Below the pieces are notes generated by a model that worked only from the letters and a program-made list of their open reading frames with translations, had not been told where the DNA came from and did no database searches. A program made the translations under genes and the position numbers. Source: a virus. Taken from it: a DNA stretch of 42,971 nt. The stretch is from the IMG/VR virus record IMGVR_UViG_3300030397_000229, positions 1-42,971 of that record. One strand, given 5' to 3'. This document shows positions 21,216-41,672 of the stretch, one piece after another (position 1 is the first letter of the stretch; each line of letters begins with the position of its first letter).

Positions 21216-22634
21216 ATGGAACCTTTCGAATTTGATCAAGAGGATCTGCAGGTCTTTGATGAGGGGCAGAGAGAAGTCCTTCTCAAGATCCAGAACCAAA
21301 TTGGCGATCACATTGAGGACAGGGTAGCAGACGCCACTAAGGACGAGTCCGAAGATAGCTTGGTTGACGATCTAGATCCGAACGCCAAGGCCTTCGCTAC
21401 GGATAAGTCTAAGCTTGACAAGGCTACTAAGCTTTGGAAAGATAATGGCGCAATCCCTGGTCGTAAGGATCGTGTAACTTACGAAGAACTTTGTGCGATC
21501 GATCGCAAGCATACGGCTGAGATGAAGGACTTTACGTCCACTGATCACCCGCTGCTTATTCCTCGCGTTGTTGGTGAGATTGTTAAGGAAGCTATTGAGC
21601 CCAATATCGTCCTTACGCCTCTACTTCAGCGTATTAACTACTCACATGGTACTCAGCTGACCTTCCCGGCTGTTGGTGCGCTAACTGCTGCCGACATCCC
21701 AGAGGGTGGTGAATACCCAGAGCGGTCCCTGGACCTCGCTGGGCAGGTCGTGGCAATCATCGGTAAGTCCGGTGTCGCGGTCAAGTTTACTGAAGAAACT
21801 ATTCGCTACTCACTGTTCGATGTCATGAGCATGCACCTTCGCGCCGCAGGTAGAGCGCTGGTACGGTGGAAAGAGAGAAAGGTTGCCGACCTCATTGTTG
21901 ACAATGCAGGTGGGTCTAACACTCTCTTCGATAACACTGTTACTGCGCATCCATCTACCACAGGTAGAGATGCTGGTGGTACCTATAACGGGACCCTGAC
22001 TTTGGACGACCTCTTTAGCGCTTACGCTACAATGGTCAACCGGGGCTTCACACCCAACACCCTTATCATGAACCCATTCGCATGGCAGATCTTCGCTGAT
22101 GAAGCCATGCAGAGAGCATTCGGTTTCCAGAATGCATCTCAGATGTGGCAAGTGCTTCAGGGCGGTCTGGGTAATGCTCCGCAGTGGAGTAATGGTAACT
22201 TTGGCAATGGTCTGCTTCAGAACACTACTGTAAGCTCACCACAGCAGCTTGCCACTACGTTCACTACAGTCCCAGGTATATTCCCATATCCGTTCCGGAT
22301 AATTGTCAGCCCGTACATGCCGTACGACGCCAGTATCAACACAACTGATATGGTAATGTGCGACGTGGCCGAGCTTGGCGTCCTTGTTGTAGACGAGGAA
22401 GTCATGACGGAGTCCTGGGATGATCCCGCACGGGATATCATGAAGGTGAAACTTCGTGAGCGCTACGGTCTTGGATCCATGAACAGTGGTGAAGGAACCG
22501 GCCTGTTAAAGGGCATTAGCATCAACCGTGGCTTCGACTTCAGCAATAGAATGAGAACTAACGTTGATCTCACTGGCCTTGGTGACCACCTGAGTGGTGA
22601 CGAAGATCACAGTGGTGTAGTTGGTCAATCATAA
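21216..22634 (+). CDS. Major capsid protein (HK97 fold) with an acidic N-terminal propeptide
   Basis: LLIPRVV, IPEGGEYPE (E-loop), KSGVAVKFTEE, PNTLIMNP, KLRERYG; strong SD; followed by a GC hairpin. Confidence 0.92.
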   Translation: MEPFEFDQEDLQVFDEGQREVLLKIQNQIGDHIEDRVADATKDESEDSLVDDLDPNAKAFATDKSKLDKATKLWKDNGAIPGRKDRVTYEELCAIDRKHTAEMKDFTSTDHPLLIPRVVGEIVKEAIEPNIVLTPLLQRINYSHGTQLTFPAVGALTAADIPEGGEYPERSLDLAGQVVAIIGKSGVAVKFTEETIRYSLFDVMSMHLRAAGRALVRWKERKVADLIVDNAGGSNTLFDNTVTAHPSTTGRDAGGTYNGTLTLDDLFSAYATMVNRGFTPNTLIMNPFAWQIFADEAMQRAFGFQNASQMWQVLQGGLGNAPQWSNGNFGNGLLQNTTVSSPQQLATTFTTVPGIFPYPFRIIVSPYMPYDASINTTDMVMCDVAELGVLVVDEEVMTESWDDPARDIMKVKLRERYGLGSMNSGEGTGLLKGISINRGFDFSNRMRTNVDLTGLGDHLSGDEDHSGVVGQS

Positions 22635-26957: not shown

Positions 26958-28493
26958 ATGGCGTTTCCCCATCTTCCAGGCTTCAATGTAGTGTTGAATG
27001 ATCTGGGTCTAAGGGTCTCACCGCAGCCTGCTGGGCCTAAGGTTACTCTTCTTGGCATTACGTCCAGTGAAGACATAACCCCGAATGAACCCTTTATTGT
27101 AACCAACGTAGGGAAGGCAGCCGCTGCGCTGTACTTCTCAGGCGCTGAGGGTACCAAGTCGTACCCAGGTGAGCTGTCGTTGGCCATTGAGGAGGCATTC
27201 TTAGCCGGTGCAGGTGCTGTTGAGGTTGTCGTCACTGCTACAGGTATCGTGGACACTCGTCTGGACTCGTACCTTGATCCCGCTGATGTGAATGGTCAAA
27301 GAGACCGCTATGGCGATCTCATTGCCACATATGATGCGATCAAGGACACGCAGCTAGATGTTGTTGTTCCCGTTGGTGCCTGGGCTGACGCAACCGGTGT
27401 GACCGGTGGGTTCATGAATCAGCTTGCTAACTTCTGCTACCAAGCCACGACAGAATTCAATAACGCCTGTTTCGGTGTTATTGGTATGATGCCGGTCCTT
27501 CATTGGGCCAAGGCTTGGAGCGGTGAGCTAGCTCTGGGCAACACTGCCCTAGCCTCAGAGGTTGATGGTCTTACGGGCCAAGACTTCTGGCGATTCGCAA
27601 CCCCATCACTCGCCCTTGTCAACGAATGGCAAAAGTATGCTGTTCAGCAGAACACTCCCGTAGTTGCCACAAGTAACGCAGATTTCCCAACAGTCTTCGA
27701 TAATTATCTAGACGGCTCTGAAGATACCGGTGGTGTCTTCTATCCGCAGAACGATGAGAACGAAGCTACTGATGTGAATGCCAGTTACTTCAGCTCATGG
27801 AGAGCGCAATCTACTGACGGTGTGCTGCAAACTGATGGCAAAGGCAACCTAGTCGACGTAGGTGCCCGTCTCTGTGTAGTCGGCGGTCCAGTCCAAACTA
27901 CTAACTCGCAAATCCGTAGCCTTGCCGCGGGTGTTGGTGGTTCACTGGCTGCTAGTGTCTACAACACTGATGGTGCTGCATCATACGCAGGCTTCATAAC
28001 TTCCCTCCAGCCACACTCTGCTACCACAAACAAGGTTATCCGTGGTACCACAACTCAGAGAACTCTGTCCTCGACACAGGTCAATGAGCTTGTTGGTAGA
28101 CGTATTACCACCTTCGTCAACAGACCGAGGGGCTTCGTGGTTGCTAGTGGTGTAACTGGAGCGCATAACGTAAGCAAGTTCGTCCGTTCTGACTTCGTCA
28201 GACTCTCAACGGTAAGAGTTGTTGACGCTGCAATTGGTCTCATTAGAGAACTTGGTGAGAGATTTATTGGTGAGCCTAACACGGCTGCCCATAGAAACGC
28301 TCTCGGCGCTGAGATAGACAAAGCTCTAACTCAGATGAAGCAAGCCAATGCTCTTAATGACTTCCAGTTCTTCGTTAAGTCAACTAATGCCCAGCAGGTC
28401 CTTGGTGAAGTAGATATCGAACTTACTCTTGTCCCGGCCTTCGAGACGTTGAAGATCACGACTAACGTCTCTCTAGCCTCTGAGATTCTATAA
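26958..28493 (+). CDS. Contractile tail sheath protein
   Basis: N-terminal LPGFNVV; C-terminal sheath domain (RLSTVRVVD..FIGEPN...GEVDIELTLVPAFETLKI); strong SD. Confidence 0.93.
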   Translation: MAFPHLPGFNVVLNDLGLRVSPQPAGPKVTLLGITSSEDITPNEPFIVTNVGKAAAALYFSGAEGTKSYPGELSLAIEEAFLAGAGAVEVVVTATGIVDTRLDSYLDPADVNGQRDRYGDLIATYDAIKDTQLDVVVPVGAWADATGVTGGFMNQLANFCYQATTEFNNACFGVIGMMPVLHWAKAWSGELALGNTALASEVDGLTGQDFWRFATPSLALVNEWQKYAVQQNTPVVATSNADFPTVFDNYLDGSEDTGGVFYPQNDENEATDVNASYFSSWRAQSTDGVLQTDGKGNLVDVGARLCVVGGPVQTTNSQIRSLAAGVGGSLAASVYNTDGAASYAGFITSLQPHSATTNKVIRGTTTQRTLSSTQVNELVGRRITTFVNRPRGFVVASGVTGAHNVSKFVRSDFVRLSTVRVVDAAIGLIRELGERFIGEPNTAAHRNALGAEIDKALTQMKQANALNDFQFFVKSTNAQQVLGEVDIELTLVPAFETLKITTNVSLASEIL

Positions 28494-28504
28494 GGAGGTA
28501 AGCT

Positions 28505-29164
28505 ATGCCCGGCACAACTACTGACAGTTTTGTAAGGACATACAATTCATTCTCTGGTGTTGATATGCTCGTCACCTTTGGGGGTACCCTCATTGGCGAA
28601 CTTCAAGGTATATCCTACACTGTCCAAAGAGAAAAGGCCCCAGTCTATACCATGGGTAGTGCAGATCCTCGCTCCTTCTCAAGAGGTAAGCGTGGTATCG
28701 CCGGTTCACTAATCTTCATGGTCTTTGACCGGTCAGCCTTGCTTGAGGCCTTCCGGGACATACCGTTCCTGATTGGTAAGACCGAGCGTCACTTTGGTAT
28801 CCTCACTGATGTCACGATCCCCGAGATCGAGATCTCTGGTGTTGATGCCTCGACTATCGGCTCTAACTCACCAAGAACGGTGACCTTGGATAAGGTTCTA
28901 GCCAGACCTTTGTACCATGACCAGATCCTGCCGTTCGAAGTGGTTATCACTGCTGCGAACGAGTATGGTGCATTCGCAACCATGAGGGTCCACGGTGTTG
29001 AGATCCTGAACTGCGGTTCAGGTATGAGCATCGATGACATCACCACAGATGAAGCCTGTACATTCATTGCACGGGCTGTCACTCCCTGGAGCAACCAGGG
29101 TCTTGTGGTTACCTCGGTTACGTCTGCTGCTGGCCTTGATACTCAAGTCGGCAACTTTACTTAA
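28505..29164 (+). CDS. Tail tube protein
   Basis: Follows the sheath with an identical RBS; SFSGVD..GELQGISY..REKAPVYTMG..RGKRGIAGSLIF tube-fold pattern. Confidence 0.85.
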   Translation: MPGTTTDSFVRTYNSFSGVDMLVTFGGTLIGELQGISYTVQREKAPVYTMGSADPRSFSRGKRGIAGSLIFMVFDRSALLEAFRDIPFLIGKTERHFGILTDVTIPEIEISGVDASTIGSNSPRTVTLDKVLARPLYHDQILPFEVVITAANEYGAFATMRVHGVEILNCGSGMSIDDITTDEACTFIARAVTPWSNQGLVVTSVTSAAGLDTQVGNFT

Positions 29165-29174
29165 TCTTGGCTTA

Positions 29175-29201
29175 GGGGGAGGTGATGCAAGCGCCTCCCC
29201 C
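29175..29201 (+). terminator. GC-rich hairpin after the tail tube gene
   Basis: GGGGGAGGTG-7 nt-CGCCTCCCCC, 10-bp stem with one G-U pair; no U-tract. Confidence 0.65.
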
Positions 29202-29209
29202 GACCTATC

Positions 29210-29992
29210 ATGGTTAATATAGAGAAGACCTTTAATAGTCAGCAGTCGCTGATCCAGAGCTACTCAGGCACAGATATCAGTGTCCTGTTTAGTATGCCCC
29301 CGTTCTTCTCTATAGGTAATAAGCTGCCACGTAAACTCAGCGCAGAGATACACACGCTGACTATATCTTCGGCAGCCTCTCTCCTTCCTGTGAGAGCTGT
29401 AGGTGAAGCCAAAGCCAGGGCCTACACTAAGGGTGCCCGCACCTTTGCTGGTACCATGATATTCACTGTCCTAGATAAGGACCCCTTCCAGGAGATCTTT
29501 GCCCTGGATGCATTAAATGGGTCAACCCTACAGGACGGACTATGGCACATAGATCAGATGCCACCATTCGATGCTGTAATAACTGCATCTAACGAGGCTG
29601 GACTATCTGCTGTGCAATTAATTTCGAACATTGTGTTCAGCAACTGGGGTACAACATATTCAGTAGATGATATGTATACTGAGTCCACGTACACCTATAT
29701 GGCTGAGCATGTCTCCCCTCTGATTAGGAATCCCACGGCTGATTCCTTCGCACAGGCTCTCAGATCGCTTGTGTCGAGACCTAGGACTCCAGACGACATC
29801 ACCCTCGAAGTTCTGGCAGAACGCGCTGGAGGGCCGTACGCAGGCTCTCAGAGCTTCTCTAGTTCTGATGGTCAGGGATCATCTCAAGAATTCAGTGAGC
29901 AGCTAGGCCCAAACCAGATATGGCTGATGGGTGCTCTCAATGATCCTGTACTACTCAACAGCTTGACAGAGGACTTATTCGGTGGTATTTAG
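29210..29992 (+). CDS. Tube-fold paralog (tube initiator / baseplate hub-like)
   Basis: SYSGTD..TKGARTFAGTMIF..DQMPPFD..ASNEAG..SVDD aligns by eye with the tube protein. Confidence 0.75.
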   Translation: MVNIEKTFNSQQSLIQSYSGTDISVLFSMPPFFSIGNKLPRKLSAEIHTLTISSAASLLPVRAVGEAKARAYTKGARTFAGTMIFTVLDKDPFQEIFALDALNGSTLQDGLWHIDQMPPFDAVITASNEAGLSAVQLISNIVFSNWGTTYSVDDMYTESTYTYMAEHVSPLIRNPTADSFAQALRSLVSRPRTPDDITLEVLAERAGGPYAGSQSFSSSDGQGSSQEFSEQLGPNQIWLMGALNDPVLLNSLTEDLFGGI

Positions 29993-30722
29993 GAATAGAT
30001 TTTACCCGACTCCCTCTACTACCCAGTATTATATTGGGGGTATACTCATAGATGATGTCTACAGAGTTGACTTTCAGCGTAGGGTCAACAGACAGCCGAT
30101 CTATGGGTATGACGATAGACTATATGGCTTCGTGGCTGAGGGTAAAGAGCTGGTTAGTGGCAATATAATCATTAATTACAGATACCCCGGCTACCTAAAG
30201 AATGTAGTGCTCCGGTCTATAGCTGATACTCAGGCTTCTAAAGACTTTATATCTAAGAACTTAGGAGAGGAGAGAGGCCTAGTATCTCAGGAGTCTATAG
30301 ATCTGACCATCAAGGAGATGGAAGAGGTGCTGACTGTAGCTGAGAAGATGGAGATACTGGCCAATAGATTGATAGAGGCCGGTGCTCTTACCAATCAACA
30401 GCTAGTAGACAGACTGAAGAGGACCTTTGAAGACAGGTTTGCTCAGGGTCCAGACCCAGATGCCGTACGTGCATTCGGTAGCCTAGAGAGCCCTGTATCA
30501 GAGGGCGTGGCTATGTTTGATCTAACAGTCAAGTACGGGTTTCAGAAAGCGGAAACAACATACACTAGAGTATTCAAGGACGTGGTCCTGGTAGGTGAGT
30601 CGCAGACAGTATCTGCCGCAGCTGGTGCCGGAGGAGACTTTAGCTCCAGTGCTCAGAACCTACTAGAGATATACCCGTTCTTTGCCAAGACGATAATTGT
30701 CGACAACCCTAAGGATAGATAG
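29982..30722 (+). CDS. Second tube-fold paralog (baseplate hub-like)
   Basis: IGGILIDDV..RQPIYGY..GKELVSGNIIIN matches the same pattern; contains a helical insertion. Confidence 0.7.
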   Translation: MVFRNRFYPTPSTTQYYIGGILIDDVYRVDFQRRVNRQPIYGYDDRLYGFVAEGKELVSGNIIINYRYPGYLKNVVLRSIADTQASKDFISKNLGEERGLVSQESIDLTIKEMEEVLTVAEKMEILANRLIEAGALTNQQLVDRLKRTFEDRFAQGPDPDAVRAFGSLESPVSEGVAMFDLTVKYGFQKAETTYTRVFKDVVLVGESQTVSAAAGAGGDFSSSAQNLLEIYPFFAKTIIVDNPKDR

Positions 30723-30724
30723 AT

Positions 30725-31099
30725 ATGAGTACTAATATAGCAAGTCCCCCAGAAATTAGCAAAGCAGCCGGAGATGCAGCTGCCAAAGCTAAGGAGGCGG
30801 GATTTGCACCCATATACACTAAGATAGCAGGACAGGAGTATGTCTATAGAGCAGTGACTCGTAAGGAATGGCGTGAGATACTGGCTGCTCGTAATGCAAA
30901 ACTTATTGCTGCTGGTGAGGACCTGGCCGCACAGTCAGTCATTCAGGAGGATGAGATGGAGGGGCTAGTGGCTATGACCCTGCTCTACCCAACGTTCAAC
31001 CCTGATACTATACCAGCTGGTACTGTCCAATCACTATCTGACTCTGTGTTAATGGAGTCTGGTTTTGCTGGTCCTGACATGGAGGCAGTGAGACTGTAA
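30725..31099 (+). CDS. Probable tail assembly chaperone
   Basis: Between tube and tape-measure genes; YVYRAVTRKEW...LYP...IPAGTVQSLSDSVL..SGF. Confidence 0.7.
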   Translation: MSTNIASPPEISKAAGDAAAKAKEAGFAPIYTKIAGQEYVYRAVTRKEWREILAARNAKLIAAGEDLAAQSVIQEDEMEGLVAMTLLYPTFNPDTIPAGTVQSLSDSVLMESGFAGPDMEAVRL

Positions 31100-31398
31100 T
31101 GAACGCCAGAGAAGAAGTAGACAGCCTATACGTTACTATAGATAACGCCACTGAAAGGCTGTCAGAGATACGAGAGAAATGTACCCACCCTGAGATGACT
31201 ATAGGATACTTCCAATGGGCACCAGGCCATATACAGGTTAAGATGCTATGTGATATATGCGACCAGCCTGTGCGTGACCCAACGGACCTTGAGAGATCGG
31301 AGTTTGACGATGTCCTTAATCCGCATGCCGACCTTGGTATACAAAAGGTAGAGTTCGTTGATGAACAGGGAAACCCTAGCGAGATTCAGTCAACTTAA
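31099..31398 (+). CDS. Small Cys/His protein (99 aa) between the chaperone genes
   Basis: CTHP and CDIC motifs; TAATG coupling. Confidence 0.6.
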   Translation: MNAREEVDSLYVTIDNATERLSEIREKCTHPEMTIGYFQWAPGHIQVKMLCDICDQPVRDPTDLERSEFDDVLNPHADLGIQKVEFVDEQGNPSEIQST

Positions 31399-31987
31399 GG
31401 TAGAAGGGCACAAGCTTCTATACCTGATCAAGCATGGGGGCCTAGAGTTAATCTTTAGGCCCCTTACTTTTTCTGAATACAAAACTATAGAAGAGCTCGA
31501 GGCTCATGTAGACCCAGTCATAGTCAACGACACTGTGGTCAGGGTAGCCGTAGAGTATTGCAGCAGGGGAATAGAATGGCTTATCAATGACTCTCCTGCT
31601 ATACTAGTTGATAAGGTTGCAGAGATAATAGTCAGCCAGTCTGCGTTCACTGACAAGAAGGTGTTCCTAGAGCTGCTAACAGAGGCTAGAAAGAAGTCTG
31701 AGAACCTAGAGAGTCTCATACAAATAGTCATACACAAGGCGTTCCCCTCTCTCACACCTGATGATGTAGAGGCTATGACTATATCAGAGCAGATGACACT
31801 GTTTGCCAAGGCTGAGCAGATCACAGGTGAGCGTGTAAACATAGAAGCTGGTGTTCAAACGAAGGAAGGCAAGCAGCCTATGATGCCACCTGTACCACCT
31901 GGCTTTGAGACTACAGATATAATGGGTCAGGAGAATGCTGACATGCCTGACTGGGACAAGATTAACAAGGGTGCTATAGCCTATTAA
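31358..31987 (+). CDS. Second tail assembly chaperone-like protein
   Basis: LIFRPLTFSEY...SPAILVDKVAEIIV.QSAF parallels 30725-31099, followed by an extra helical domain (TPDDVEAMTISEQ). True start is probably the ATG at 31361. Confidence 0.7.
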   Translation: MMNRETLARFSQLKVEGHKLLYLIKHGGLELIFRPLTFSEYKTIEELEAHVDPVIVNDTVVRVAVEYCSRGIEWLINDSPAILVDKVAEIIVSQSAFTDKKVFLELLTEARKKSENLESLIQIVIHKAFPSLTPDDVEAMTISEQMTLFAKAEQITGERVNIEAGVQTKEGKQPMMPPVPPGFETTDIMGQENADMPDWDKINKGAIAY

Positions 31988-34900
31988 TGCCTGACTTACC
32001 GGATAGACTACATGAGTTTGATGCTCAGCTAGCTAGAGAGCGTAGAGAGGATGCCTCTGATGCTGCCTGGCTAGGTGGTCTTATGGTGATAGGTGCCGGG
32101 GCCTATGCTCTTGGCAGGAAAGGCAAAGTCAATGTCTTTGCTGAGCTCCTAGACAAAGCAGGTAGGAGCGCCAGATTCTTAGGTCACCTTTCTAACAAAG
32201 GTGTACGTAGGCCAGTCTTCCAGCCTGAGACCAGTGACCTATTATATCAAGCCCTACGTATACCACGTGATGCTGGTGGTGAAGCACTACAGCGTGGTCT
32301 AGCTGGTGGGAGACTAGAGAATGTAGATCTGGTCAGGGATCTTGGTAATGCAATAGCTATCCTCCAGGACCCAAGGAATCACTCCAACGTCCAGGAGATG
32401 ACCAGGCTCTTTAGAGAGCACTTCAGAAACCTCCCAACTACCAGAGGAAGAGCCACACCCTCTGGCTTCCACCACGAACTACACCCCCTGACCTTTGATC
32501 AGGTACTAGAGAGAAGCAGTGACTGGATAGATACTGTCGCTTCCTCTGCAATGCCCACTAGGACTGCTGGTGGTAAGACCAAGCCTCTTAGCATTGGTAT
32601 TGTTGAGAAGGCCCTGGAGATGGAGTGGATCACCAGAGAGACAATAGTAGACTCCAATCTCTTTGTCTCTATGGGCAGAAAGCCTGGTAGGCTCATTGAC
32701 ACAAGGATACTCAGGCCGAGACAGCTCATGTCTCAGATATCTGATATCTTTGATCCCTTTGGTATAGTCAATGCATCTAAGGCTCTCTTTGGTTCTGCTC
32801 AGAATGTAGCTGTTATAGGTCCTGCCAGAGGTGGGAAAGGCAGAAGATTGTTCCTGGGTGGAGATGTATATGACATCTTCGATCGTGGACTCAAGAAGAC
32901 CCACACTGGTCAGACCCTAGGTACTGTTGGTGATATACGACATCTTCCTGCTGCTCTGCGTGAAGCACAGTTTGATAGGAAACTGCGTGATCTATACCAC
33001 GAAGTACCTCACGACACTCTCTTAGGTAGACTAGCTGACAAGACAGGCGTGGGTCGTAGGTTCCACGACAAGCGCGGTATAGGCTTTGCATGGGCAGCTA
33101 ACGTACTCAAGAGGGTTAGAGGCGTAGGCTCAGGTGAGGCTGTCTTCTTTGCCAGGGACTTTAAGTACAAAGAGAACAGTGTTCTAGGTCTGCTCCTGGG
33201 TGCACAGCATCCAGAGGTTGTAGCTAAGGCTGCCACTAGAGAGATCGTAGAGGGTAAGTACGCTGGCAAGGCATTCATGGAGGCTAAAGACCTGCCCTGG
33301 TGGGATAGAGTCAAGGCCTACATGGGTATCAGTGATGATATCACTGTAGTTAAGTCAGAGGCTCGTAAGAAAGCACGTATATCTAAGGACGACCTATACG
33401 CTGACTATGGCAAGGGTGGTATCAAGTCTATTGAAACACCTATCAGAACCAGAGCTGAAGCAGAAGGTGCTACAGGTGTGTCCCTCATGGGACAGCTGGA
33501 CTTCACAGAACGGAGCCCCTTCTACACTACCAGTGGCTTCCTCGCAGACAAAGCATATGATTTTGCCAACTACCTAACCATACGTCTGAATTCACTGGCC
33601 AGTAGCTCCCTACTAGGTATAGGTTTTAGGCCATCAGGCAACGCAGCAGCGAACGTAGGTAGGCTCGCATCTATCCCAGCCATATACTATACTGCCTTTG
33701 AAGGCCTAAGATACACAGACTATGTGATGGAGGAGGCTACGGGCATCAGCCCCATAGAGTCTGCTGCCACTCTGTACACTAAAGCACGTGTAGCACAGCA
33801 ACAGGCGAGAGAGTTCACGGGTATTCAGCAGACAGCTGAGTACGCAGAGGAGAATATATTCCCAGGTCTATCTGTGGGCTTCCTAGGTACAGTAGCCTCA
33901 GCCACTTTAGGCCTAGCACTCCTGGGCAAGACAGGCTCTCGTAAGATAGCAGGGTTAGGCTTTGCCTCTATCTATGGTGCCATAGGTGGTCCTGAGGTGT
34001 CACAGCCAGCTGAGGAACTAGAAGAGATATACGCAGGGGATAGAAAGGTGCCTATCAAGAAGGCTAGATGGTGGCTCCTAGGCTATCAGCCCTTCTCTGG
34101 TGAAGAAATAGACCACTACTCACCTAGCTGGTACCAGAAACTCAAGAATAAACCATGGCAACGTAATGTTGCAGGAAGCGAGGCAGCTTACTGGAGGGAC
34201 GCATCCTTCCTTCCCACGCCTCATAACTTCTTTGGTGTTAGGATGCTGGTGGACCCCTACGCCTTGGAAAGGAGCCAATACCACAGGCGGCCCTATCCCA
34301 TGACATCTGCTATGTTTGAAGAGGTACCTATCATAGGTCCTATACTAGCAGATACTGTCGGGGAGATTATTAAGCCTAGACGTGAGCGGATGCCAGATGA
34401 GGCAGTGGCTACAGCCACCTCATTTATCAGCCAGAAAGGCGTTCCAGCTGATGCAGCCCAGCGTCTAGGTATTCCCGACATACCAGGTCAGCTCATAGAT
34501 ATGAACAGGCCTGATATATTAAGGGACAGACTACAGAAGTACGCCAACGTTGCGCTAGAGCCCACGGGTATCTGGAAGTTTGCACTGGAGACATTCGGTG
34601 TTAAGTTTGATGATGAGTACAAGATGGCTGATGCTGGCAACATGGCTAGCATATCTAGGCAGTTCTATGGTGCTAACCTAGGCGGTCTATTTGGTCAGAC
34701 TGAATTCATTAGACGATTCTTGATGTCTGACTATGGGTCACCTAGCCAGATGAATGCTCAGATCAACCCACTAGCCAATAGCCTGCCTAGCTGGCTGCCT
34801 GGCTCACGTAGTCAGTTCGAGAATGACCGTGACTTCTTTGTAGACTTCACTAGAGGTGATGCATATACCAAGATCAGTGGTGGTGAGTACAGACTGCCAG

Positions 34901-36327
34901 GCCCAGGCTATGAGGCTGTCAATGAGCTACAGTCTGGTACAGCTGGGGTGTACAGCGATGTAGACAAGATGCTTGTCCTTGCTGACATAGCCCCCTTCTC
35001 CTCAGCCTTCTATCACTTCCAAAAGAAGGTGGAGCAGAAGAGTCTTGACCCAAGATGGGCTCGCAAGGTAGAGCTAGCCTTAGAGCAGAGACAGACTAAG
35101 ATCAATAAGTTCCAGTTTGAGATGGAGACACCTCAAGAGGCAGCGACACGTGCCAATGCCAACCCCTTAGAGCGCAGTATCCGAGGGGCCTGGGACTTCA
35201 CACACGACAACGTCTTAAGGGAGCTACCCATTGTAGGTAGTAAGTTCTTCCCACACACTAACCCTGTTGACAAGTATATCAAGACCAGAGTAGAGGGTGA
35301 GACGTTTGCAGACTGGAACCGTCCATTAGAGACGATAGTCAGGCCCACATTCTATGATATAGCCGGTGAGGACCCAGCTACTGGTATACTCAAAGGAGCA
35401 TCTCTTGGCGCTCTTATGTCTATAGGTGTAGGTAAGTACATGAACCCCTTCAGAGTAGTGGCTAACGATCCAGCTCTAGCTATAGTTGGTGGAGCAGCAG
35501 CTGGTGGTGCAGCCTCCTCTGCTAGAATGATAGCTACTGGTCAGCTACAAGGTGGCTTTGTTCCTGCCCATGTAGAGAGAGAGCGAGAGGTGCAGACATA
35601 CTTTGACTTCCTGAAGTACGAGAAGTACCGCAGACTACAGGGTATGGCTTACGATGCCAGTCAGTTAGACCTGGCCCAGAAGTTCCAGAACCAGGCAAAG
35701 CGCACAGTGGCCTATGGCATGGCTGACTTCGAGGCTACAGGGGACATAGCTGCCTATCAGATGGCCCTCAGTAGATTCGATAGGCCATACTTTGAGGCCT
35801 TCCTGAAGATACCTGAGCAGGACAGAGAGCGCGTGCTTGATGTAGTCCCTGACCATATGGCTATGGTCTTACAGGGTGCCTGGGGCAGACAAGGTAAGTC
35901 AGGTGGTGGAAATAGTAAGGCAGGGTTCCAAGGTGCTGACGAGGCCGCTGAAGACTACTTTGATAGCCATCCACGTCCTGATGGCGATTGGCTAGGCTGG
36001 CATCCATCAGTACCTGATGCTGCTGTCCAGATAAAGCTTATACAGAACAATATATTTGGTGTCTCTGACAATATACATAGGTTCGGGTTCTATCCTGCCC
36101 AGGAGAGAGAAGCTGATATGCGCTTCCCAAGCCTGGAGTACCCCAAGGATATCAGGGGTGAGCCCGAAGATTGGCTGAAGAGGATGTTCCAGCTAGGTCT
36201 TACTGGTCCTATGAACTACAGTAGGATCTCTCTGGGTACAGGACCAGATCTAAACATCTTTAATGGCGTATTCCACGACCATAGACGGGACGACGTATTC
36301 ACCTTCTACAACGATATGTATAGATAA
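31987..36327 (+). CDS. Tape-measure-locus protein 1 (1446 aa) with membrane segments
   Basis: Directly after the chaperones; several Gly/Ala-rich hydrophobic helices; Trp/Tyr/Pro-rich central block (VPIKKARWW..PFSG...DPY..RPYP). Confidence 0.7.
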   Translation: MPDLPDRLHEFDAQLARERREDASDAAWLGGLMVIGAGAYALGRKGKVNVFAELLDKAGRSARFLGHLSNKGVRRPVFQPETSDLLYQALRIPRDAGGEALQRGLAGGRLENVDLVRDLGNAIAILQDPRNHSNVQEMTRLFREHFRNLPTTRGRATPSGFHHELHPLTFDQVLERSSDWIDTVASSAMPTRTAGGKTKPLSIGIVEKALEMEWITRETIVDSNLFVSMGRKPGRLIDTRILRPRQLMSQISDIFDPFGIVNASKALFGSAQNVAVIGPARGGKGRRLFLGGDVYDIFDRGLKKTHTGQTLGTVGDIRHLPAALREAQFDRKLRDLYHEVPHDTLLGRLADKTGVGRRFHDKRGIGFAWAANVLKRVRGVGSGEAVFFARDFKYKENSVLGLLLGAQHPEVVAKAATREIVEGKYAGKAFMEAKDLPWWDRVKAYMGISDDITVVKSEARKKARISKDDLYADYGKGGIKSIETPIRTRAEAEGATGVSLMGQLDFTERSPFYTTSGFLADKAYDFANYLTIRLNSLASSSLLGIGFRPSGNAAANVGRLASIPAIYYTAFEGLRYTDYVMEEATGISPIESAATLYTKARVAQQQAREFTGIQQTAEYAEENIFPGLSVGFLGTVASATLGLALLGKTGSRKIAGLGFASIYGAIGGPEVSQPAEELEEIYAGDRKVPIKKARWWLLGYQPFSGEEIDHYSPSWYQKLKNKPWQRNVAGSEAAYWRDASFLPTPHNFFGVRMLVDPYALERSQYHRRPYPMTSAMFEEVPIIGPILADTVGEIIKPRRERMPDEAVATATSFISQKGVPADAAQRLGIPDIPGQLIDMNRPDILRDRLQKYANVALEPTGIWKFALETFGVKFDDEYKMADAGNMASISRQFYGANLGGLFGQTEFIRRFLMSDYGSPSQMNAQINPLANSLPSWLPGSRSQFENDRDFFVDFTRGDAYTKISGGEYRLPGPGYEAVNELQSGTAGVYSDVDKMLVLADIAPFSSAFYHFQKKVEQKSLDPRWARKVELALEQRQTKINKFQFEMETPQEAATRANANPLERSIRGAWDFTHDNVLRELPIVGSKFFPHTNPVDKYIKTRVEGETFADWNRPLETIVRPTFYDIAGEDPATGILKGASLGALMSIGVGKYMNPFRVVANDPALAIVGGAAAGGAASSARMIATGQLQGGFVPAHVEREREVQTYFDFLKYEKYRRLQGMAYDASQLDLAQKFQNQAKRTVAYGMADFEATGDIAAYQMALSRFDRPYFEAFLKIPEQDRERVLDVVPDHMAMVLQGAWGRQGKSGGGNSKAGFQGADEAAEDYFDSHPRPDGDWLGWHPSVPDAAVQIKLIQNNIFGVSDNIHRFGFYPAQEREADMRFPSLEYPKDIRGEPEDWLKRMFQLGLTGPMNYSRISLGTGPDLNIFNGVFHDHRRDDVFTFYNDMYR

Positions 36328-39300
36328 TGGCGGACTCTGATCTCATCAAGGGCTTAAGAGAGGTGCATGCCTCCATACATGACAAGGTGTTTAAGAGCAC
36401 CATGTCAGGTCCTTCTGTAGATACAGTCAATACCTATTTCTCTCAGATAGGTATGTCCAACATAGTGGCTGGACAAGACACTATAGGTGATGAGGCCATT
36501 ATAGGTGAGACGCTAGCCAAGACCAAGATCACTGGTGTCCACAGTAAGCAGGTATCGTATAGCACAGCAGGAGTTAAGTCAGGCTCTGCTAGATTCTATT
36601 CGCAGGCTGGGCCTGTATCTGGTGTACTAAACCAGCTTAACGTCGCAGCGCAGGGCACTCAAAGTGTGTCATTCTTCTACGATACATACCTCCAGGGCAA
36701 CCTGTCATTGTCACAGGGTGTGGTACCAGGCGGAAGAAAGGCTCAAGTCCCTGTCAAGGCTATGCTTCAGAGGTTCTTCTCTGAGATACCCTTTGAGGAC
36801 AGCAGGCTTGAGACCGTCATGGGCTCTATCCAGCGTGCTCAAGAGGCAGGACAGGCACAGCCAGGCACAGGTATGGGCTACCTTGCTAAAGCTGTGCAGA
36901 TGGCAGGTGGTGGTAGACTAGACAACCCCAATGCTCTTGAGGCTATATTCAATGCTGCATACCTACGCTCTCTAGATAGAGGGCCTATGGGTCTGCAAAG
37001 CTTTAAGCAGTTTCTCTCTAACTTCGGTGTAGAGGGTCTAGCAGGCACAGAGCAGAGTATATGGCGTACCACTGACCCGTTTGGTATAGAGAAGCTAGCA
37101 GGTCAGAAGCCTAGCACCAAGTCTTATGCCAGCTATGTGGCTACTGAGGCAGGCAGCAATAGATTCCTGGGTAACGTAGAGAAGGTATACGGTCAGAGAT
37201 ATAGACGTGCCCTCGAAGATGTAGTCAGGTGGTCCTTCTCTAACGCAGGTGACTCTGTAGCATTTGCCATGAATGAGGCAGGTGCTATCTTCATGGGTCG
37301 CCACGGTGTCTTCTCATCCTTTGAGGCTCTGCCTGCACAGTTCCTAGATGACCCAATAGGTGTGTCGAGAGCAGGCATGCCATCTGGTGTGGTCAACATA
37401 GGTGGTCAGCTTAGACAGGGACGTCCTATGTGGGGCCCGAATGGTCCTACGTCATACGCAGAGATGGCTCTGGGTGAGTTCAGTGAAGGTCTAACGCAGA
37501 GAGGAGGCCTTACATCCAGTAATGCACCAGTAGCTATACACGCAGCAGCCAAGCGTATGCGTACTGCTGGGCCACTACAAGATGCACTTGACAATGTAGT
37601 ATCTAGAGGTCAGTTCGGATTCTACTCTGCTATGTTCGGTCAGGGCTCTATGATGACCCAGACCAATAACCTGGCTCTATTTAATGAAGAGCTAAGAAAC
37701 CTATACAACAAGGTTAGAAGAGGTCAGAGTACGGCAGGTGCAGATAGTGCTATGATGAGAGCACTCGGTACCGCTATTGACACCATGCAGAGCACCTTCC
37801 CAGGTGTAGAGATAGCCCCTGAGTTCCTCACCTCTGTCAAGCAGGACGTAGCCAAGGGCAATCTAGTGCCCACCACACTCCTCAGACACTTCTTCCTGCC
37901 TGATAGCACCCTAGGTGAGCGTGAAGTAGCCAAGGGTCTACACCAGGTCAGAGGTATGCTGGAGGTATTCCGCACCTCTGAGCTCACAGGTATAGGTGCA
38001 GTCAACGCTAGCCTAGGTATAGGCAACAGAGCTGCTACCCTAGGTATGATGTCAGGAGACTATGCAGCTGCCAAGGCTCTCGGTAGAGTATATGGGCCTG
38101 GCTCTGCTATTAGCAACCTGACTGGCATGAAGGGAATGGGTGGCTTTGCACCCACAACACTCCACTCACTATATGCTGTAGTCAATGCTCCTAACGCATC
38201 ATTCAGAACAGGGCTGTTCGGTGATGCTGGCGCATTCATGACCCCTGCTGGTAAGCAGGCATTTGGAACTACGTTTGCTCCTGGCCTACAGCATGAGACC
38301 TTTATGAACAGGTCTAAGGCTCTTGCGTACCTTAGAGGGCTGGCTGGCAAGAATATAAACACTCCTGAGTGGGCTGAGTTCATCGGCAAAGTAGAAGAAG
38401 GTATCACAGGTAGAGGTCCCTTCACTCCGTCTAAGCCACTACCTATCGATCCCACAGCTAGAGTGCCTGGGCTGCGTAGTGGTATAACACACCTGACCAG
38501 CATCACACCCAGCTCTTCACCTGGCTTCCAGGAAGCACACGTCAAGTTTAACTTTGGCTCCACACAGCAGAGAGGATTCCTTGAGGGTCTGTTCAACAGA
38601 GTATCTAGATTCACAGCACGCTCAGCCTCACAAGGACACCTAGAGAGAACATTCGGTGGCCTAGCGTCAGCAGCTCACTTTATTATGGAGGCTGACACCT
38701 TCAATGCTGCTATCTCTCAAGAGAATGTGTTCATGCATCGCATTGGCCTTCTCTCTACTAGACCACAAGGCTCTACTACAGAGTTCTTAGAACACTACCA
38801 GAAGTTTGGTGGTAAGGGGCTTATAGAGACACAAGAAGGTGTAATAGTACCTGACCCAGATTCATTCAACTTCGCTAACTTCAGGAAGGCATCTACTGGC
38901 TCCCTGATGAAGATGGGCTTCAGCCGTGGCCAGATAAGGGGTATGTACAACACCCTTGGCGGCGTACCTGGCATGGCTTCTCTTCTTGGTCAATCTGAGA
39001 TGCAGGGTGACCTCAGTAGACTGCAGACAGGTGCTAATAAGATTATGTCCTCCGTGGGTGCCCACACAAGACTGTTCTTTGGCGCCTTCAGTCATAGATT
39101 TGATGCCACCAGTGATATACTATCACAACAGAAGGCCTTCAAAGTTAGACTAGAGTCTCTGGCTAATATGGCTCAGGGTATACAAGAGCTGTACGGCATG
39201 CCTGCATCTAAGCATCCAGGCTTTGCTCTAATGGCTGATACCCTGACACGTAGAACAGGTATACAGCTGGCTATAGATAACTCTGGCTGGGTGGACATCA

Positions 39301-41672
39301 ATGCCTTTGTAAAGAGCATGCCTACTGAGATGATGGCTCCATTTGCTCCTATGGCAGAGGGAGAAAACCTTAGAAGCTGGGCAGCAGGCAAGGGTATAGA
39401 TATACTAACCCCACAAGAGGTTGCAGCCAAGTATGACGATGCCTCTCTTACCACACTAAGGTCTGGTAAGATGGAGTTTGAGAATGCCATGACCACCAAG
39501 CTACTTGCTGGTGATCGCAAGGGGTTCTACATCGACACCATGGACACCAGAATTATACCTGGTGTGACTCAGGACTTCTCTGAGGAGGCTCTTAAGTTCC
39601 AGACTAGGTATGTCTATGTACCAGGAGCTGAGTTCCTGCGTAGGCATCTGAAGGGTGCTGAGGGTCTACCAGCTCAGCCATTCAAAGGCAGTCTTGTAGA
39701 GGGTGTGCTAGGCCTGGTCGAGTCTATAAGATATGGTGACAGAGAGAAGCCACAGAACCTAGGCTCAGTGGATGACTATGTAGCTCAGATGTATAAGGGT
39801 TTCATAGGCTGGGGTGGTCGTGAAGGTGCACTGAGAGAGACTATGACATCTGCTAGAATGAAGATGTCAGCTCGTGGTCGTATAGTACAGCAGCCCATGT
39901 CAGTGGCTTTAGCTGCAGCTGATGGTGTAATCGCTGGCAAGGTACGTGGCAGTGTATATGAAGTAGGTATATCTGAGGGCACACTGAGTCAGATGTTCTT
40001 TGGTGAGCAGAGACCTACACCTAGAACGCGTGCACAGTTCACTCAGCTAGTCAACAGACTACGTGGTCAGGGCAAGCCTATATATGGTATGCTCTCACCC
40101 AACCCAACACACGGTGCTGGTCACTTCCCAATAGTCAAGTTCAAGCTCGATGACACGCTTAAGTTCGTGGGTGCTCATGAGAATGGCTTCTCTATGAGTA
40201 ACTTCCTTGCATGGACTCTTAACAGAGACATGGACAAGGATGTCATCGAAGCCTTTATGTTCGAAGGTCCTAACGCAGACCGATTGAAGAACCTCGGAGT
40301 GATGGGACGCATCGCTGAGGGTATGGATGAGTTGTTCCAAAAGCAACGTCAACAGCATGCTCTTATGCATCAGGCATGGCAGAAGGGTACACAGGATGCC
40401 TTCGTCAGGCTAAATGAGATTACTGACCGCGCTGTAGAAGAGGGCATAGGTGGCTCAGAACATCTTCGTAGGCTGTCAGCTTACTATGGGTTCGGCAACC
40501 TACCTCCTGTGGCCTTCATGCCCAACTACCCAGTGCAGTCATTTCACTCTGTCCTGGCCTCACCCATCAAGGGACCTGATGATCTCAAGAGAATAGCCAA
40601 CAGCCTGAACAGAAATGCCAGCTCCATCGATGTCATGTTCGATGCTAAGGACGTGGCGGAGCTACGCAAGCTCATGAAGGTAGGTGGTATGGAAGCTGGA
40701 CAGGTCTGGGGTCATGCGTCATTACTCCAGAGAAACATATTCCAGGCTCCTATCACCAAGGGCAACAAGCATCTCAACACACTGTTAGAAGACTTCATAG
40801 ATATACGCTCTGAGATACAGAAGGGTATGACACCTGAAGAGGCTATCAATGTAGGTGTCCAGAAGGCTCGCAGGTTCTTTGAGAGATTCATGCAGGTTGA
40901 GGAGGCTGGCAATGTAGAGCTGTCCAACCTTTCTAAGCTCAAGATAGATGCTGGTGGTATATATGATGGGCTAACTAATAATGAGATCCTAGAGAAGGTG
41001 TCTCAGATAGCTGGTCGTACTCAGGCTGTAGCTGCATATGCTATGGCAAGACATGATGCTCAGTTCGGCAACAAGATACACGATGCCATGGGCGGCCCCA
41101 GAGGTAGGCTGGACAGAATAGTCGAGTTTATGTTCCCTGGTAAGCGTATCAGTCTGTGGTCAGAGAAGATGGCAGCAGAGAATGCAGAGGGTATGTCCGC
41201 TGGTGCTGAGCAAGCGATCAAGGGTGGCTCCTCTCAGGTACTCGACGCCACTACCAACTTCCTCAAGAAGAACTGGAAGGGACTAGGTATAGCTGCTGGT
41301 GTCGTTGTAGGCGCAAGAGCTGCTATGAATCTGACTACACCTAGCGCCCTAGCACCACAAGCACCCCTACCTCCCTTCCCAAATATAGGGATGCAGCCTC
41401 TAGGGGCTATACCACAGCTAGGTCAGCAGTTCGGTCTCGTCATGCCAGCTCAGGGACACTTCGGCCTCACCAATGTAGGAGGAACCTTTAACTCGGTAAA
41501 TAGTAAAGAGATAGACTCTAAGATGGACTCCAGTATGAGCTCCTTTGGCAACGCAGTATCTAATGTCAATATAAGGGACTCACGTAGGTATACTAGCAAC
41601 TGGGAGATGCAGAACATAGCTTCCAGGCGTGGTAACAGCGACTTCATACACGAATATGGCACTTACTTTTAA
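36327..41672 (+). CDS. Tape-measure-locus protein 2 (1781 aa): putative single-chain two-barrel virion RNA polymerase with a C-terminal membrane helix
   Basis: Four beta'-DPBB segments in the correct order: GREGALRETMTSARMKMSARGRIV, YEVGISEGTLSQMF, MLSPNPTH and LNRDMDKD. Weaker beta-DPBB-like segments lie upstream. Confidence 0.75.
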   Translation: MADSDLIKGLREVHASIHDKVFKSTMSGPSVDTVNTYFSQIGMSNIVAGQDTIGDEAIIGETLAKTKITGVHSKQVSYSTAGVKSGSARFYSQAGPVSGVLNQLNVAAQGTQSVSFFYDTYLQGNLSLSQGVVPGGRKAQVPVKAMLQRFFSEIPFEDSRLETVMGSIQRAQEAGQAQPGTGMGYLAKAVQMAGGGRLDNPNALEAIFNAAYLRSLDRGPMGLQSFKQFLSNFGVEGLAGTEQSIWRTTDPFGIEKLAGQKPSTKSYASYVATEAGSNRFLGNVEKVYGQRYRRALEDVVRWSFSNAGDSVAFAMNEAGAIFMGRHGVFSSFEALPAQFLDDPIGVSRAGMPSGVVNIGGQLRQGRPMWGPNGPTSYAEMALGEFSEGLTQRGGLTSSNAPVAIHAAAKRMRTAGPLQDALDNVVSRGQFGFYSAMFGQGSMMTQTNNLALFNEELRNLYNKVRRGQSTAGADSAMMRALGTAIDTMQSTFPGVEIAPEFLTSVKQDVAKGNLVPTTLLRHFFLPDSTLGEREVAKGLHQVRGMLEVFRTSELTGIGAVNASLGIGNRAATLGMMSGDYAAAKALGRVYGPGSAISNLTGMKGMGGFAPTTLHSLYAVVNAPNASFRTGLFGDAGAFMTPAGKQAFGTTFAPGLQHETFMNRSKALAYLRGLAGKNINTPEWAEFIGKVEEGITGRGPFTPSKPLPIDPTARVPGLRSGITHLTSITPSSSPGFQEAHVKFNFGSTQQRGFLEGLFNRVSRFTARSASQGHLERTFGGLASAAHFIMEADTFNAAISQENVFMHRIGLLSTRPQGSTTEFLEHYQKFGGKGLIETQEGVIVPDPDSFNFANFRKASTGSLMKMGFSRGQIRGMYNTLGGVPGMASLLGQSEMQGDLSRLQTGANKIMSSVGAHTRLFFGAFSHRFDATSDILSQQKAFKVRLESLANMAQGIQELYGMPASKHPGFALMADTLTRRTGIQLAIDNSGWVDINAFVKSMPTEMMAPFAPMAEGENLRSWAAGKGIDILTPQEVAAKYDDASLTTLRSGKMEFENAMTTKLLAGDRKGFYIDTMDTRIIPGVTQDFSEEALKFQTRYVYVPGAEFLRRHLKGAEGLPAQPFKGSLVEGVLGLVESIRYGDREKPQNLGSVDDYVAQMYKGFIGWGGREGALRETMTSARMKMSARGRIVQQPMSVALAAADGVIAGKVRGSVYEVGISEGTLSQMFFGEQRPTPRTRAQFTQLVNRLRGQGKPIYGMLSPNPTHGAGHFPIVKFKLDDTLKFVGAHENGFSMSNFLAWTLNRDMDKDVIEAFMFEGPNADRLKNLGVMGRIAEGMDELFQKQRQQHALMHQAWQKGTQDAFVRLNEITDRAVEEGIGGSEHLRRLSAYYGFGNLPPVAFMPNYPVQSFHSVLASPIKGPDDLKRIANSLNRNASSIDVMFDAKDVAELRKLMKVGGMEAGQVWGHASLLQRNIFQAPITKGNKHLNTLLEDFIDIRSEIQKGMTPEEAINVGVQKARRFFERFMQVEEAGNVELSNLSKLKIDAGGIYDGLTNNEILEKVSQIAGRTQAVAAYAMARHDAQFGNKIHDAMGGPRGRLDRIVEFMFPGKRISLWSEKMAAENAEGMSAGAEQAIKGGSSQVLDATTNFLKKNWKGLGIAAGVVVGARAAMNLTTPSALAPQAPLPPFPNIGMQPLGAIPQLGQQFGLVMPAQGHFGLTNVGGTFNSVNSKEIDSKMDSSMSSFGNAVSNVNIRDSRRYTSNWEMQNIASRRGNSDFIHEYGTYF

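Follow-up and report, generated by a model that had tools for sequence, protein, structure and literature searches.

The DNA considered here, the first 42,971 bases (hereafter the window) of a 123,280-base linear contig from an uncultured large phage (IMG/VR record IMGVR_UViG_3300030397_000229; CheckV completeness ~64%), encodes within its tail module a cysteine-free protein of 1,781 residues, hereafter the candidate, whose centre (residues ~600-1400) is probably a single-chain two-barrel RNA polymerase that would be packaged in the tail and injected to transcribe the first phage genes. We favour this reading with some, though by no means complete, confidence. That the protein is a polymerase had already been proposed in an earlier, sequence-only reading of the window, and this interpretation is now supported by the presence of the expected barrel in a structural model and by the conservation of three aspartates. 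The argument for a polymerase delivered through the tail is drawn from the conjunction of a conserved catalytic signature, a predicted fold and a genomic slot between two proteins that have virion-component homologues; packaging and ejection as such are suggested by synteny, by the cysteine-free composition and by a C-terminus that faintly resembles that of a virion protein. Virion single-chain two-barrel polymerases are already known, so that what would be new here is a family invisible to sequence models, its association with a contractile tail and the presence of a separate giant partner.

A conserved catalytic signature in a family of giant proteins

A full HMMER pass with residues 601-1700 against 1.84 billion representative proteins defined a family of 28 proteins at E<=1e-3 (27 at <=1e-10 and 19 at <=1e-30), most of them between 1,700 and 1,830 residues in length, with 22-37% identity to the query; the members that were looked up are all named 'hypothetical protein' only, and family members are found on contigs as long as 196 kb. 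The conservation counts given throughout refer to a 28-row alignment, the denominator being the number of rows with a residue in the column concerned. The most telling columns lie in a short acidic loop, where R1300, D1301, D1303 and D1305 are each present in 26/26 rows and K1304 in 23/26. They are accompanied upstream by P1260 and H1262 (both 26/26), P1258 (25/26) and R1185 (24/24), and, in the putative beta-like module, by G632 (23/23), R761 (23/23), H804 (22/23), R924 (24/24) and D633 (21/23, the other two rows having Glu). The features of the candidate on which the argument rests are the following.

36327-41672, + strand: whole candidate open reading frame (P0001), 1,781 residues, no cysteine, open throughout
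38145-39119, + strand: predicted beta-like double-psi beta-barrel (DPBB) module, DPBB-B, residues ~607-931 (model residues 8-332), with F-G-D 631-633, R761, H804 and R924
38217-38225, + strand: F631-G632-D633, candidate counterpart of the 'FED' of beta
39351-40403, + strand: predicted beta'-like module, residues ~1009-1360, containing the putative catalytic barrel DPBB-A (~1179-1349)
39879-39881, + strand: R1185, the invariant arginine, in the first barrel strand; beta' has ..SGRSVI.. there
40098-40112, + strand: P1258-x-P1260-T-H1262, at a strand end; beta' has NRAPTLH there
40227-40241, + strand: D1301-M-D1303-K-D1305, predicted metal-binding triad; its loop connects a short helix to a strand
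40311-40442, + strand: 44-residue helix, residues 1329-1372, bridge-helix candidate directly after the catalytic barrel; Q1340 in 25/26 rows
40509-41078, + strand: all-helical domain, residues ~1395-1584, confidently predicted; Q1473 and K1478 in 27/27 rows
41271-41327, + strand: Gly/Ala-rich hydrophobic helix NWKGLGIAAGVVVGARAAM, residues 1649-1667, followed by a Pro-rich stretch
41568-41669, + strand: C-terminal motif ..NIRDSRxYxSNWE...SDFIHxY; D1751 and R1753 in 26/26 rows, D1772 in 26/27

All strings on which the sequence-only reading had built its case are found in the candidate at the residues and nucleotides it gave: GREGALRE... at residue 1164 (nucleotide 39816), YEVGISEGTLSQMF at 1211, MLSPNPTH at 1255 (nucleotide 40089) and LNRDMDKDVI at 1298, with the three aspartates at nucleotides 40227-40241, and, upstream, GLFGDAGAFMT at 629, VKFNFG at 739, FNRVSRFTA at 756 and AHFIM at 783. 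The Escherichia coli strings set against them are equally real and occur in the identical order (beta' 333, 364, 422 and 458; beta 809, 1063/1068 and 1094). Two of its more specific claims survive only in part. The ungapped match to beta' starting at residue 1164 is placed as it had been described, but its 7/24 identities are, by sequence alone, no better than chance; and the S-x-R segment proposed to be conserved does retain a basic residue in 19/24 rows, but its serine in only 11/24, the invariant arginine being R1185, two residues further on. What raises the motifs above chance is their conservation taken together with the predicted fold. The candidate is also rich in methionine (75 Met among 1,781 residues, 4.2%), as are most family members (37-77 Met).

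The predicted fold and its relatives

An AlphaFold2 model of residues 600-1420, calculated from 27 sequences, has a mean predicted local distance difference test score (pLDDT) of 79.1 and a predicted template modelling score (pTM) of 0.77, and on its basis this region is predicted to be a relative of two-barrel RNA polymerases. The double-psi beta-barrel anticipated around residues 1164-1310 is present in the model at ~1179-1349, and the beta-like barrel suspected upstream corresponds to residues ~607-931, which align to the second-largest subunits of multisubunit polymerases (Z 6.7-8.7). The check that the earlier reading had named, AlphaFold followed by Foldseek, indeed returned RNA polymerases: there were 176 matches in the PDB at E<=1e-3, and of the 50 listed nearly all are RNA polymerase complexes by title, headed by the phiKZ non-virion polymerase (9.4e-6) and AR9 (1.1e-5) and followed by Pol II, bacterial beta' and the plastid-encoded polymerase (PEP). 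When the Foldseek matches were realigned with VIA-align, seven entries of QDE-1 came first (Z 12.5-13.0), the best being 7y7p_A (Z 13.0, root-mean-square deviation (rmsd) 3.5, 239 aligned residues), whose alignment covers model residues 10-799 and thus both barrels.

A separate search of all 48,161 representative chains, independent of Foldseek, gave only four matches at Z>=8, every one of them a polymerase (QDE-1, P74-26 gp62, AR9 beta' and vaccinia Rpo132). P74-26 gp62 (8f5m_A) is the second-best match (Z 8.9, rmsd 3.8, 200 aligned). Other single-chain enzymes scored lower, namely P23-45 gp96 (8h2m_A; Z 7.9, rmsd 4.7, 202 aligned, model 7-718), maize RDR2 (Z 7.3, 282 aligned) and crAss phi14:2 gp66 (Z 5.8, rmsd 6.0, 296 aligned, model 1-796). 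Taken module by module, model residues 8-332 align to vaccinia Rpo132 735-1025 (Z 8.7, rmsd 5.4, 224 aligned), Drosophila Rpb2 (Z 8.0), the second subunit of African swine fever virus (Z 7.9) and Xanthomonas beta 812-1278 (Z 6.7), and model residues ~410-760 to beta'/Rpb1 chains at Z 8.0-8.8, among them AR9 beta' (8.8) and E. coli beta' 23-507 (8.3). Generic double-psi barrels also fall on model residues 580-750 (designed DPBB 7dvc_A, Z 6.7; CDC48-N, Z 7.4; VAT-N).

The order of the modules in the model is beta-like, then beta'-like, and the alignments to QDE-1, gp62 and gp96 span both. Within the second barrel the elements follow one another as in beta': the strand bearing R1185 (model 582-589), a helix over EGTLSQMF, a strand leading to PNPTH, a helix over NFLAWT, the DMDKD loop and a further strand, the triad loop lying between the model helix 693-698 and the strand 707-712. 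The barrel is succeeded by a long helix (model 730-773), and the QDE-1 alignments extend to model 799-809; this 44-residue helix (1329-1372) is a candidate bridge helix.

Outside this core the predictions are less informative. The C-terminal third is helical, but the model of residues 1325-1781 (pLDDT 64.8) matched no known fold, the best hits being a helical hairpin by VIA-align (Z 6.3) and one of E 0.4 by Foldseek. The hydrophobic helix at 1649-1667 falls below the Kyte-Doolittle cut-off of 1.6, and the Pro-rich stretch behind it is predicted with low confidence and mostly without secondary structure. For residues 1-600, an Atlas language-model look-up led to tape-measure clusters with sub-threshold scores of 0.80-0.82; the same look-up of the protein encoded immediately upstream likewise gave sub-threshold leads only.

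Conventional sequence comparison is silent on all of this. The whole candidate matched no Pfam family at E<=0.01, RNA polymerase subunit families including PF00623 among those unmatched, and no PHROG, including those of crAss gp66 and of tape measures. Neither phmmer nor a profile hmmsearch of the PDB yielded a polymerase (the best profile match, a seryl-tRNA synthetase at E 0.2, is noise), tblastn of the whole candidate against 50,697 phage records returned no known relative, and none appeared in a scan of the genomes of 185,579 species, which therefore gave no hint of the host. Profile-profile comparison by hhalign gave E 0.17 and a probability of 0.3% for the family profile against E. coli beta', its best local alignment placing NRDxDKD on beta' NADFDGD 458-464 at a non-significant score, and probabilities of 0.08% and 0.12% for the 28-sequence profile against P23-45 gp96 residues 1-1200 and P23-45 gp64, respectively.

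A slot in the tail module

The genes surrounding the candidate belong to a contractile-tail module, the parts of which that matter here are listed below.

26958-28493, + strand: tail sheath (Pfam/PHROGs)
28505-29164 and 29210-29992, + strand: two tube-like paralogues of the contractile-tail module
31987-36327, + strand: upstream giant gene P0002, 1,446 residues, no cysteine, homologue of 0305phi8-36 gp145
41629 to contig base 48705, beyond the end of the window at 42,971, + strand: baseplate-hub-like gene, 2,358 residues (BLASTP to gp147; phrog_20474)

The sheath gene bears out the claim that the phage is sheath-bearing, and together with the tube-like genes (26958-29992) it implies a contractile tail. 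Both tube-like paralogues match PHROG 9206, which carries the label 'major head protein'; this label looks wrong, because the 0305phi8-36 record names the homologues tail tube and tube paralogue. Three giant genes follow, P0002 (1,446 residues), the candidate (1,781 residues) and the 2,358-residue gene, so tightly arranged that the ATG of the candidate overlaps the stop codon of P0002 (TAATG) and its 3' end overlaps the start of the hub-like gene.

By terminase and sheath, this virus comes closest, among cultured phages, to Moorella phage MTATph1, to the Bacillus jumbo phage 0305phi8-36 with its kin, and to Acinetobacter phage vB_AbaM_ME3 (ME3). The order in 0305phi8-36 is sheath, tube, chaperonins, gp145, gp146 (annotated as a 'hypothetical tape measure protein') and the baseplate hub gp147, and its record lists both gp145 and gp146 as detected in virions by mass spectrometry. 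P0002 is homologous by BLASTP to gp145 (7e-19, plus further segments), to ME3 gp035 (1e-34) and to Moorella CDS26 (1e-26), and the 2,358-residue gene is homologous to gp147 (3e-16 and 4e-9). Flanked as it is by a gp145 homologue and a gp147 hub homologue, the candidate fills the gp146 slot and hence, by synteny with 0305phi8-36, the tape-measure position of the tail module. This corrects the sequence-only reading, which had put the polymerase behind a tape-measure-like gene: P0002 is a homologue of gp145, not of the annotated tape measure, and it is the candidate that occupies the gp146 slot. The layout is thus nearer to that of P23-45 than had been supposed, because the polymerase lies in the very protein at the tape-measure position. 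A locus scan with a 4-sequence alignment found two related viral contigs, and in 2/2 of them the order is sheath, tube, gp145-like gene, family member, hub-like gene and baseplate wedge; from sheath to hub, the order is the same in 0305phi8-36, ME3 and the Moorella phage.

A second feature of the giant proteins upstream of the hub is the absence of cysteine. There is not a single one in any of the 28 family members, in P0002, gp145 or gp146, in ME3 gp035 and gp036, or in Moorella CDS26 and CDS27, so that across four myoviruses that are only distantly related, neither of the two giants preceding the hub (1,263-2,537 residues each) contains cysteine, whereas the neighbouring hubs have 4-12 cysteines. 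Among the other open reading frames of at least 600 residues in this genome, 14/15 have 1-10 cysteines, and one of 985 residues at 82368-85325 has none. We infer that the lack of cysteine marks proteins that pass the tail tube and the cell envelope. A further, weak link to the slot comes from the last ~130 residues, which faintly resemble the end of gp146 in that a hydrophobic helix leads by way of a linker to an 'NI.D.R' end. By eye, similar ends (..N-I/L-x-D/H-D/S-R-R/S..) are seen on P0002 (36250-36324), gp145, gp146 and Moorella CDS26; such a shared end motif could be a signal for tail loading or anchoring.

Not every occupant of the slot looks like a polymerase. Neither gp146 nor Moorella CDS27 has a DxDxD motif, so occupancy of the slot does not by itself imply a polymerase. 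In the Moorella phage, CDS27 (1,309 residues, 30512-34441) contains, by eye, a stretch 'VLDLETTT' reminiscent of DEDD exonucleases, and a transposase gene and three small open reading frames stand between CDS27 and the hub-like gene. With DxDxD missing from both proteins and an exonuclease-like motif in one of them, the slot seemingly holds different cargoes in different phages.

The most instructive of the cultured relatives is ME3, whose gp036 (1,603 residues, 'hypothetical protein') occupies the corresponding slot, with gp035 (homologous to gp145) before it and gp037 (homologous to the hub) after it, and, like the candidate, has no cysteine, a single DxDxD (DHDQD at 1217, with SREPAQG before it) and a hydrophobic helix near its end. 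It bears no detectable sequence similarity to the candidate family by hhalign, hmmsearch or BLASTP, and no slot protein of the cultured relatives showed BLASTP similarity to the candidate. Yet a BFVD model from ME3 with a chunk length of 802 (UniProt A0A172Q021) matches the candidate model at E 5.7e-6 over 577 columns; judging by its length this model should be gp036, which then most likely has a similar predicted fold. BFVD ranks highest a protein without a name (3.7e-13, 966 columns), followed by a 'minor tail protein' from an uncultured siphovirus (2.1e-12, 925 columns). Another ME3 protein (BFVD A0A172Q0S6, 798 residues) also matches the candidate model (E 6.6e-7, 675 columns) and may be a non-virion polymerase, paralleling the two-polymerase scheme of P23-45.

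How might it work, and what else could it be?

If the candidate is a tail-delivered polymerase, its mode of action might be envisaged as follows. D1301, D1303 and D1305 would bind Mg2+, and the conserved basic residues of the first barrel (R761 and H804) would complete the active site. The protein would travel through the tail tube in an unfolded or extended state, which would explain why cysteines are absent. Anchorage in the tail lumen or at the membrane channel would fall to the C-terminal hydrophobic helix and the end motif. The polymerase could then make RNA from the entering DNA without the host enzyme, as in P23-45.

Several observations weigh against this proposal. The link to polymerases is absent in every sequence method applied, and the fold is a predicted one, calculated from no more than 27 sequences and with a putative active-site geometry. 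The middle position of the triad is lysine (23/26) rather than the glycine of cellular enzymes, and the template is not fixed by a fold whose best structural match, QDE-1, uses both RNA and DNA. The C-terminal likeness to gp146 is weak (hmmsearch E 0.0017 with a six-sequence set; hhalign E 0.022, probability 2%), and the DxDxD-less gp146 and CDS27 sit in the same slot. Nor does any 11-mer recur in more than 2/29 intergenic regions, in a contig that, at ~64% of the genome, limits the search for promoters and for a second polymerase alike. As to the latter, a D-[FYWLIMV]-D-x-D motif search of the contig found none; PF00623 did not match the contig either, although the same search was positive in 14/14 control genomes, and PF00940, likewise without a match, is uninformative in that it found nothing in any control genome. 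Given the incompleteness of the contig, the absence of a second polymerase means little.

How strong, then, are the other explanations? One that is unlikely is that the two barrels form an active enzyme with another job, be it as an RNA-dependent RNA polymerase, as a primase-like enzyme by which replication of the incoming DNA is primed, or as a PolD-type DNA polymerase. QDE-1, the best fold match at Z 13.0, copies RNA as well as DNA (PMC9508822, in excerpt), the plant enzyme RDR2 also matches (Z 7.3), and PolD shares both barrels (PMC10770324, in excerpt). However, no PolD chain is found among the best 50 rows of either structural search, an RNA template upon entry is not obvious for a double-stranded DNA phage, and those phage enzymes with this fold that have been investigated are, as far as the excerpted texts of PMC10770324 and 10.1101/2020.03.07.982082 go, all DNA-dependent transcriptases. 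The candidate could also be a working RNA polymerase that is co-expressed with the tail genes and serves middle or late transcription without being packaged, which we consider unlikely. In its favour, 0305phi8-36 is reported to have a YonO-like polymerase, ABS83659.1 (PMC7824862, in excerpt), that by its accession lies outside the tail-module genes gp139-gp164 (ABS83697-83722). Here, by contrast, start and stop codon overlap at the junction with the gp145-like gene, the candidate runs into the hub gene and this position is kept in all contexts seen; moreover, the zero-cysteine composition is common to two 0305phi8-36 proteins recorded as virion components, and neither the hydrophobic helix nor the shared C-terminal end motif would have a role in a soluble transcriptase.

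The two remaining alternatives deny enzymatic activity or the fold itself. That the candidate is a structural tape-measure or tail-lumen protein whose barrels are an inactive relic would fit its place in the slot of the 'hypothetical tape measure' gp146, the lead-level tape-measure clusters of residues 1-600 and the helical C-terminal third. It is nonetheless quite improbable, since a relic would not keep R-D-x-D-x-D, PxPxH, R1185, R761, Q1473 and K1478 in every member at 22-37% identity, and no tape-measure family of Pfam or PHROGs matches the candidate. Least credible, and in our view very improbable, is that the polymerase fold is an artefact of prediction from a shallow alignment: the model was indeed calculated from only 27 sequences, and no solved relative is detectable by sequence, but the motifs had been chosen from the sequence before any model existed and coincide precisely with the corresponding elements of the predicted barrel, the pTM is 0.77, all four matches at Z>=8 in the Foldseek-independent search are polymerases, and phage proteins modelled independently in BFVD align with it over 577-966 columns. 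We therefore retain the tail-delivered RNA polymerase as the preferred reading.

A broader proposition may be ventured with more reserve. The lineage of 0305phi8-36, ME3 and the Moorella phage might have kept, between gp145-like protein and hub, a slot for cargo from which cysteine-free giant proteins are fired through the tail tube into the cell and which holds different enzymes in different phages, a self-sufficient two-barrel RNA polymerase in the candidate family and in ME3 gp036 and a protein with a DEDD-exonuclease-like motif in the Moorella phage; tail-delivered transcription would then be widespread. We regard this extension as tentative and on balance rather doubtful.

Relation to known phage polymerases

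Few ways are known in which phages bring their own polymerase into the cell, exemplified by N4, by phiKZ and AR9, by the crAss-like gp66 and by gp96 of P23-45. The N4 virion polymerase has a T7-like fold and is unrelated to the two-barrel enzymes, and both crAss gp66 and the virion polymerases of phiKZ and AR9 are packaged in the head. To our knowledge, the sole tail-delivered polymerase so far is that of a long-tailed Thermus phage.

P23-45 gp96, with counterparts in P74-26, G20c and TSP4, is a two-barrel RNA polymerase of the virion that forms one chain with the tail tape measure (PMC10770324, in excerpt), and the candidate shares with it the single-chain two-barrel architecture within a giant protein at the tape-measure position, hydrophobic segments and the proposed role, i.e. 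injection through the tail and transcription of the first genes. The two differ in other respects. The phage of gp96 is a non-contractile siphovirus, and gp96 itself is 5,002 residues long, carries its polymerase N-terminally and also has a metallopeptidase domain and the motif DFDGD. The candidate belongs to a phage with a contractile tail, has 1,781 residues with the polymerase in the centre and a D-x-D-K-D motif, and is preceded by a separate giant gp145-like gene; no peptidase was found in it. It has no sequence likeness to gp96 and is structurally nearer to QDE-1. QDE-1 (7Y7P, 2J7N, 5FSW) and maize RDR2 (7W84) have the same order of barrels and the same helix after the catalytic barrel as the candidate, but they are eukaryotic RNA-silencing enzymes without a virion context, and searches of the PDB revealed no sequence similarity between them and the candidate.

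The crAss phage phi14:2 gp66 (6VR4) is, like the candidate, a giant virion protein with a single-chain two-barrel polymerase and a DxDxD motif (10.1101/2020.03.07.982082, in excerpt); it differs in coming from a short-tailed phage and in its weak structural score against the candidate (Z 5.8). The non-virion polymerases P23-45 gp64 and P74-26 gp62 and the YonO-like enzymes of SPbeta and 0305phi8-36 likewise carry both barrels on a single chain, but unlike the candidate they are soluble, only ~600-800 residues long and not encoded among tail genes. The contractile-tailed phages phiKZ and AR9 inject a polymerase for independence from the host, as is proposed for the candidate phage, and their enzymes are split into 4-5 subunits (PMC7598289, in excerpt); beta' pieces of both rank among the best Foldseek hits of the candidate model. 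In the literature consulted, P23-45 was the sole tail-fused case found, and no description was met of a phage with a contractile tail whose tail module encodes a two-barrel polymerase.

Should the preferred reading be correct, the polymerase would ride in the lumen of a contractile tail, which would bear on the storage and passage of a large folded enzyme in a narrow tube, on the escape of early transcription from host control and defence, and on the divergence of two-barrel polymerases, one of which would have become invisible to every sequence model. About 30 metagenomic clusters, at present labelled 'hypothetical' or 'minor tail protein', could then be annotated. If the cargo-slot proposition were true as well, the myovirus tail would be an enzyme injector, and tail-delivered transcription would be no peculiarity of one Thermus siphovirus. 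The polymerase reading lends itself directly to experiment, since ME3, a phage in culture, possesses an analogous gene at the corresponding place.

Other genes of the window and the contig

Upstream of the tail module, the window contains a packaging and head module with these principal genes.

11727-13706, + strand: large terminase
16256-18481, + strand: portal
21216-22634, + strand: major capsid protein

The packaging region further includes, at 7550-8815, a protein with a family-B DNA polymerase exonuclease domain in which the polymerase domain is not obvious, a calcineurin-like phosphoesterase directly before the terminase (10699-11727) and an S-adenosylmethionine methyltransferase between terminase and portal (13684-14313). 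Elsewhere in the contig, at 110370-123097 on the minus strand, lies a run of sugar-modification genes, i.e. a UDP-glucose dehydrogenase-like gene, four glycosyltransferases, a C-methyltransferase, epimerase/dehydratases and a DegT-type aminotransferase, which possibly serve glycosylation of the virion or its DNA, or a change of the host surface. An IMP dehydrogenase/GMP reductase family gene (98940-100007, minus strand; Pfam E 3.7e-85) is adjoined by a gene for a 2-oxoglutarate-Fe(II) oxygenase (99976-100566, plus strand), and the minus strand at 107330-107884 encodes a small protein in which Pfam recognizes a cyclic-phosphate-processing receiver domain (cREC_REC, E 2.5e-11).

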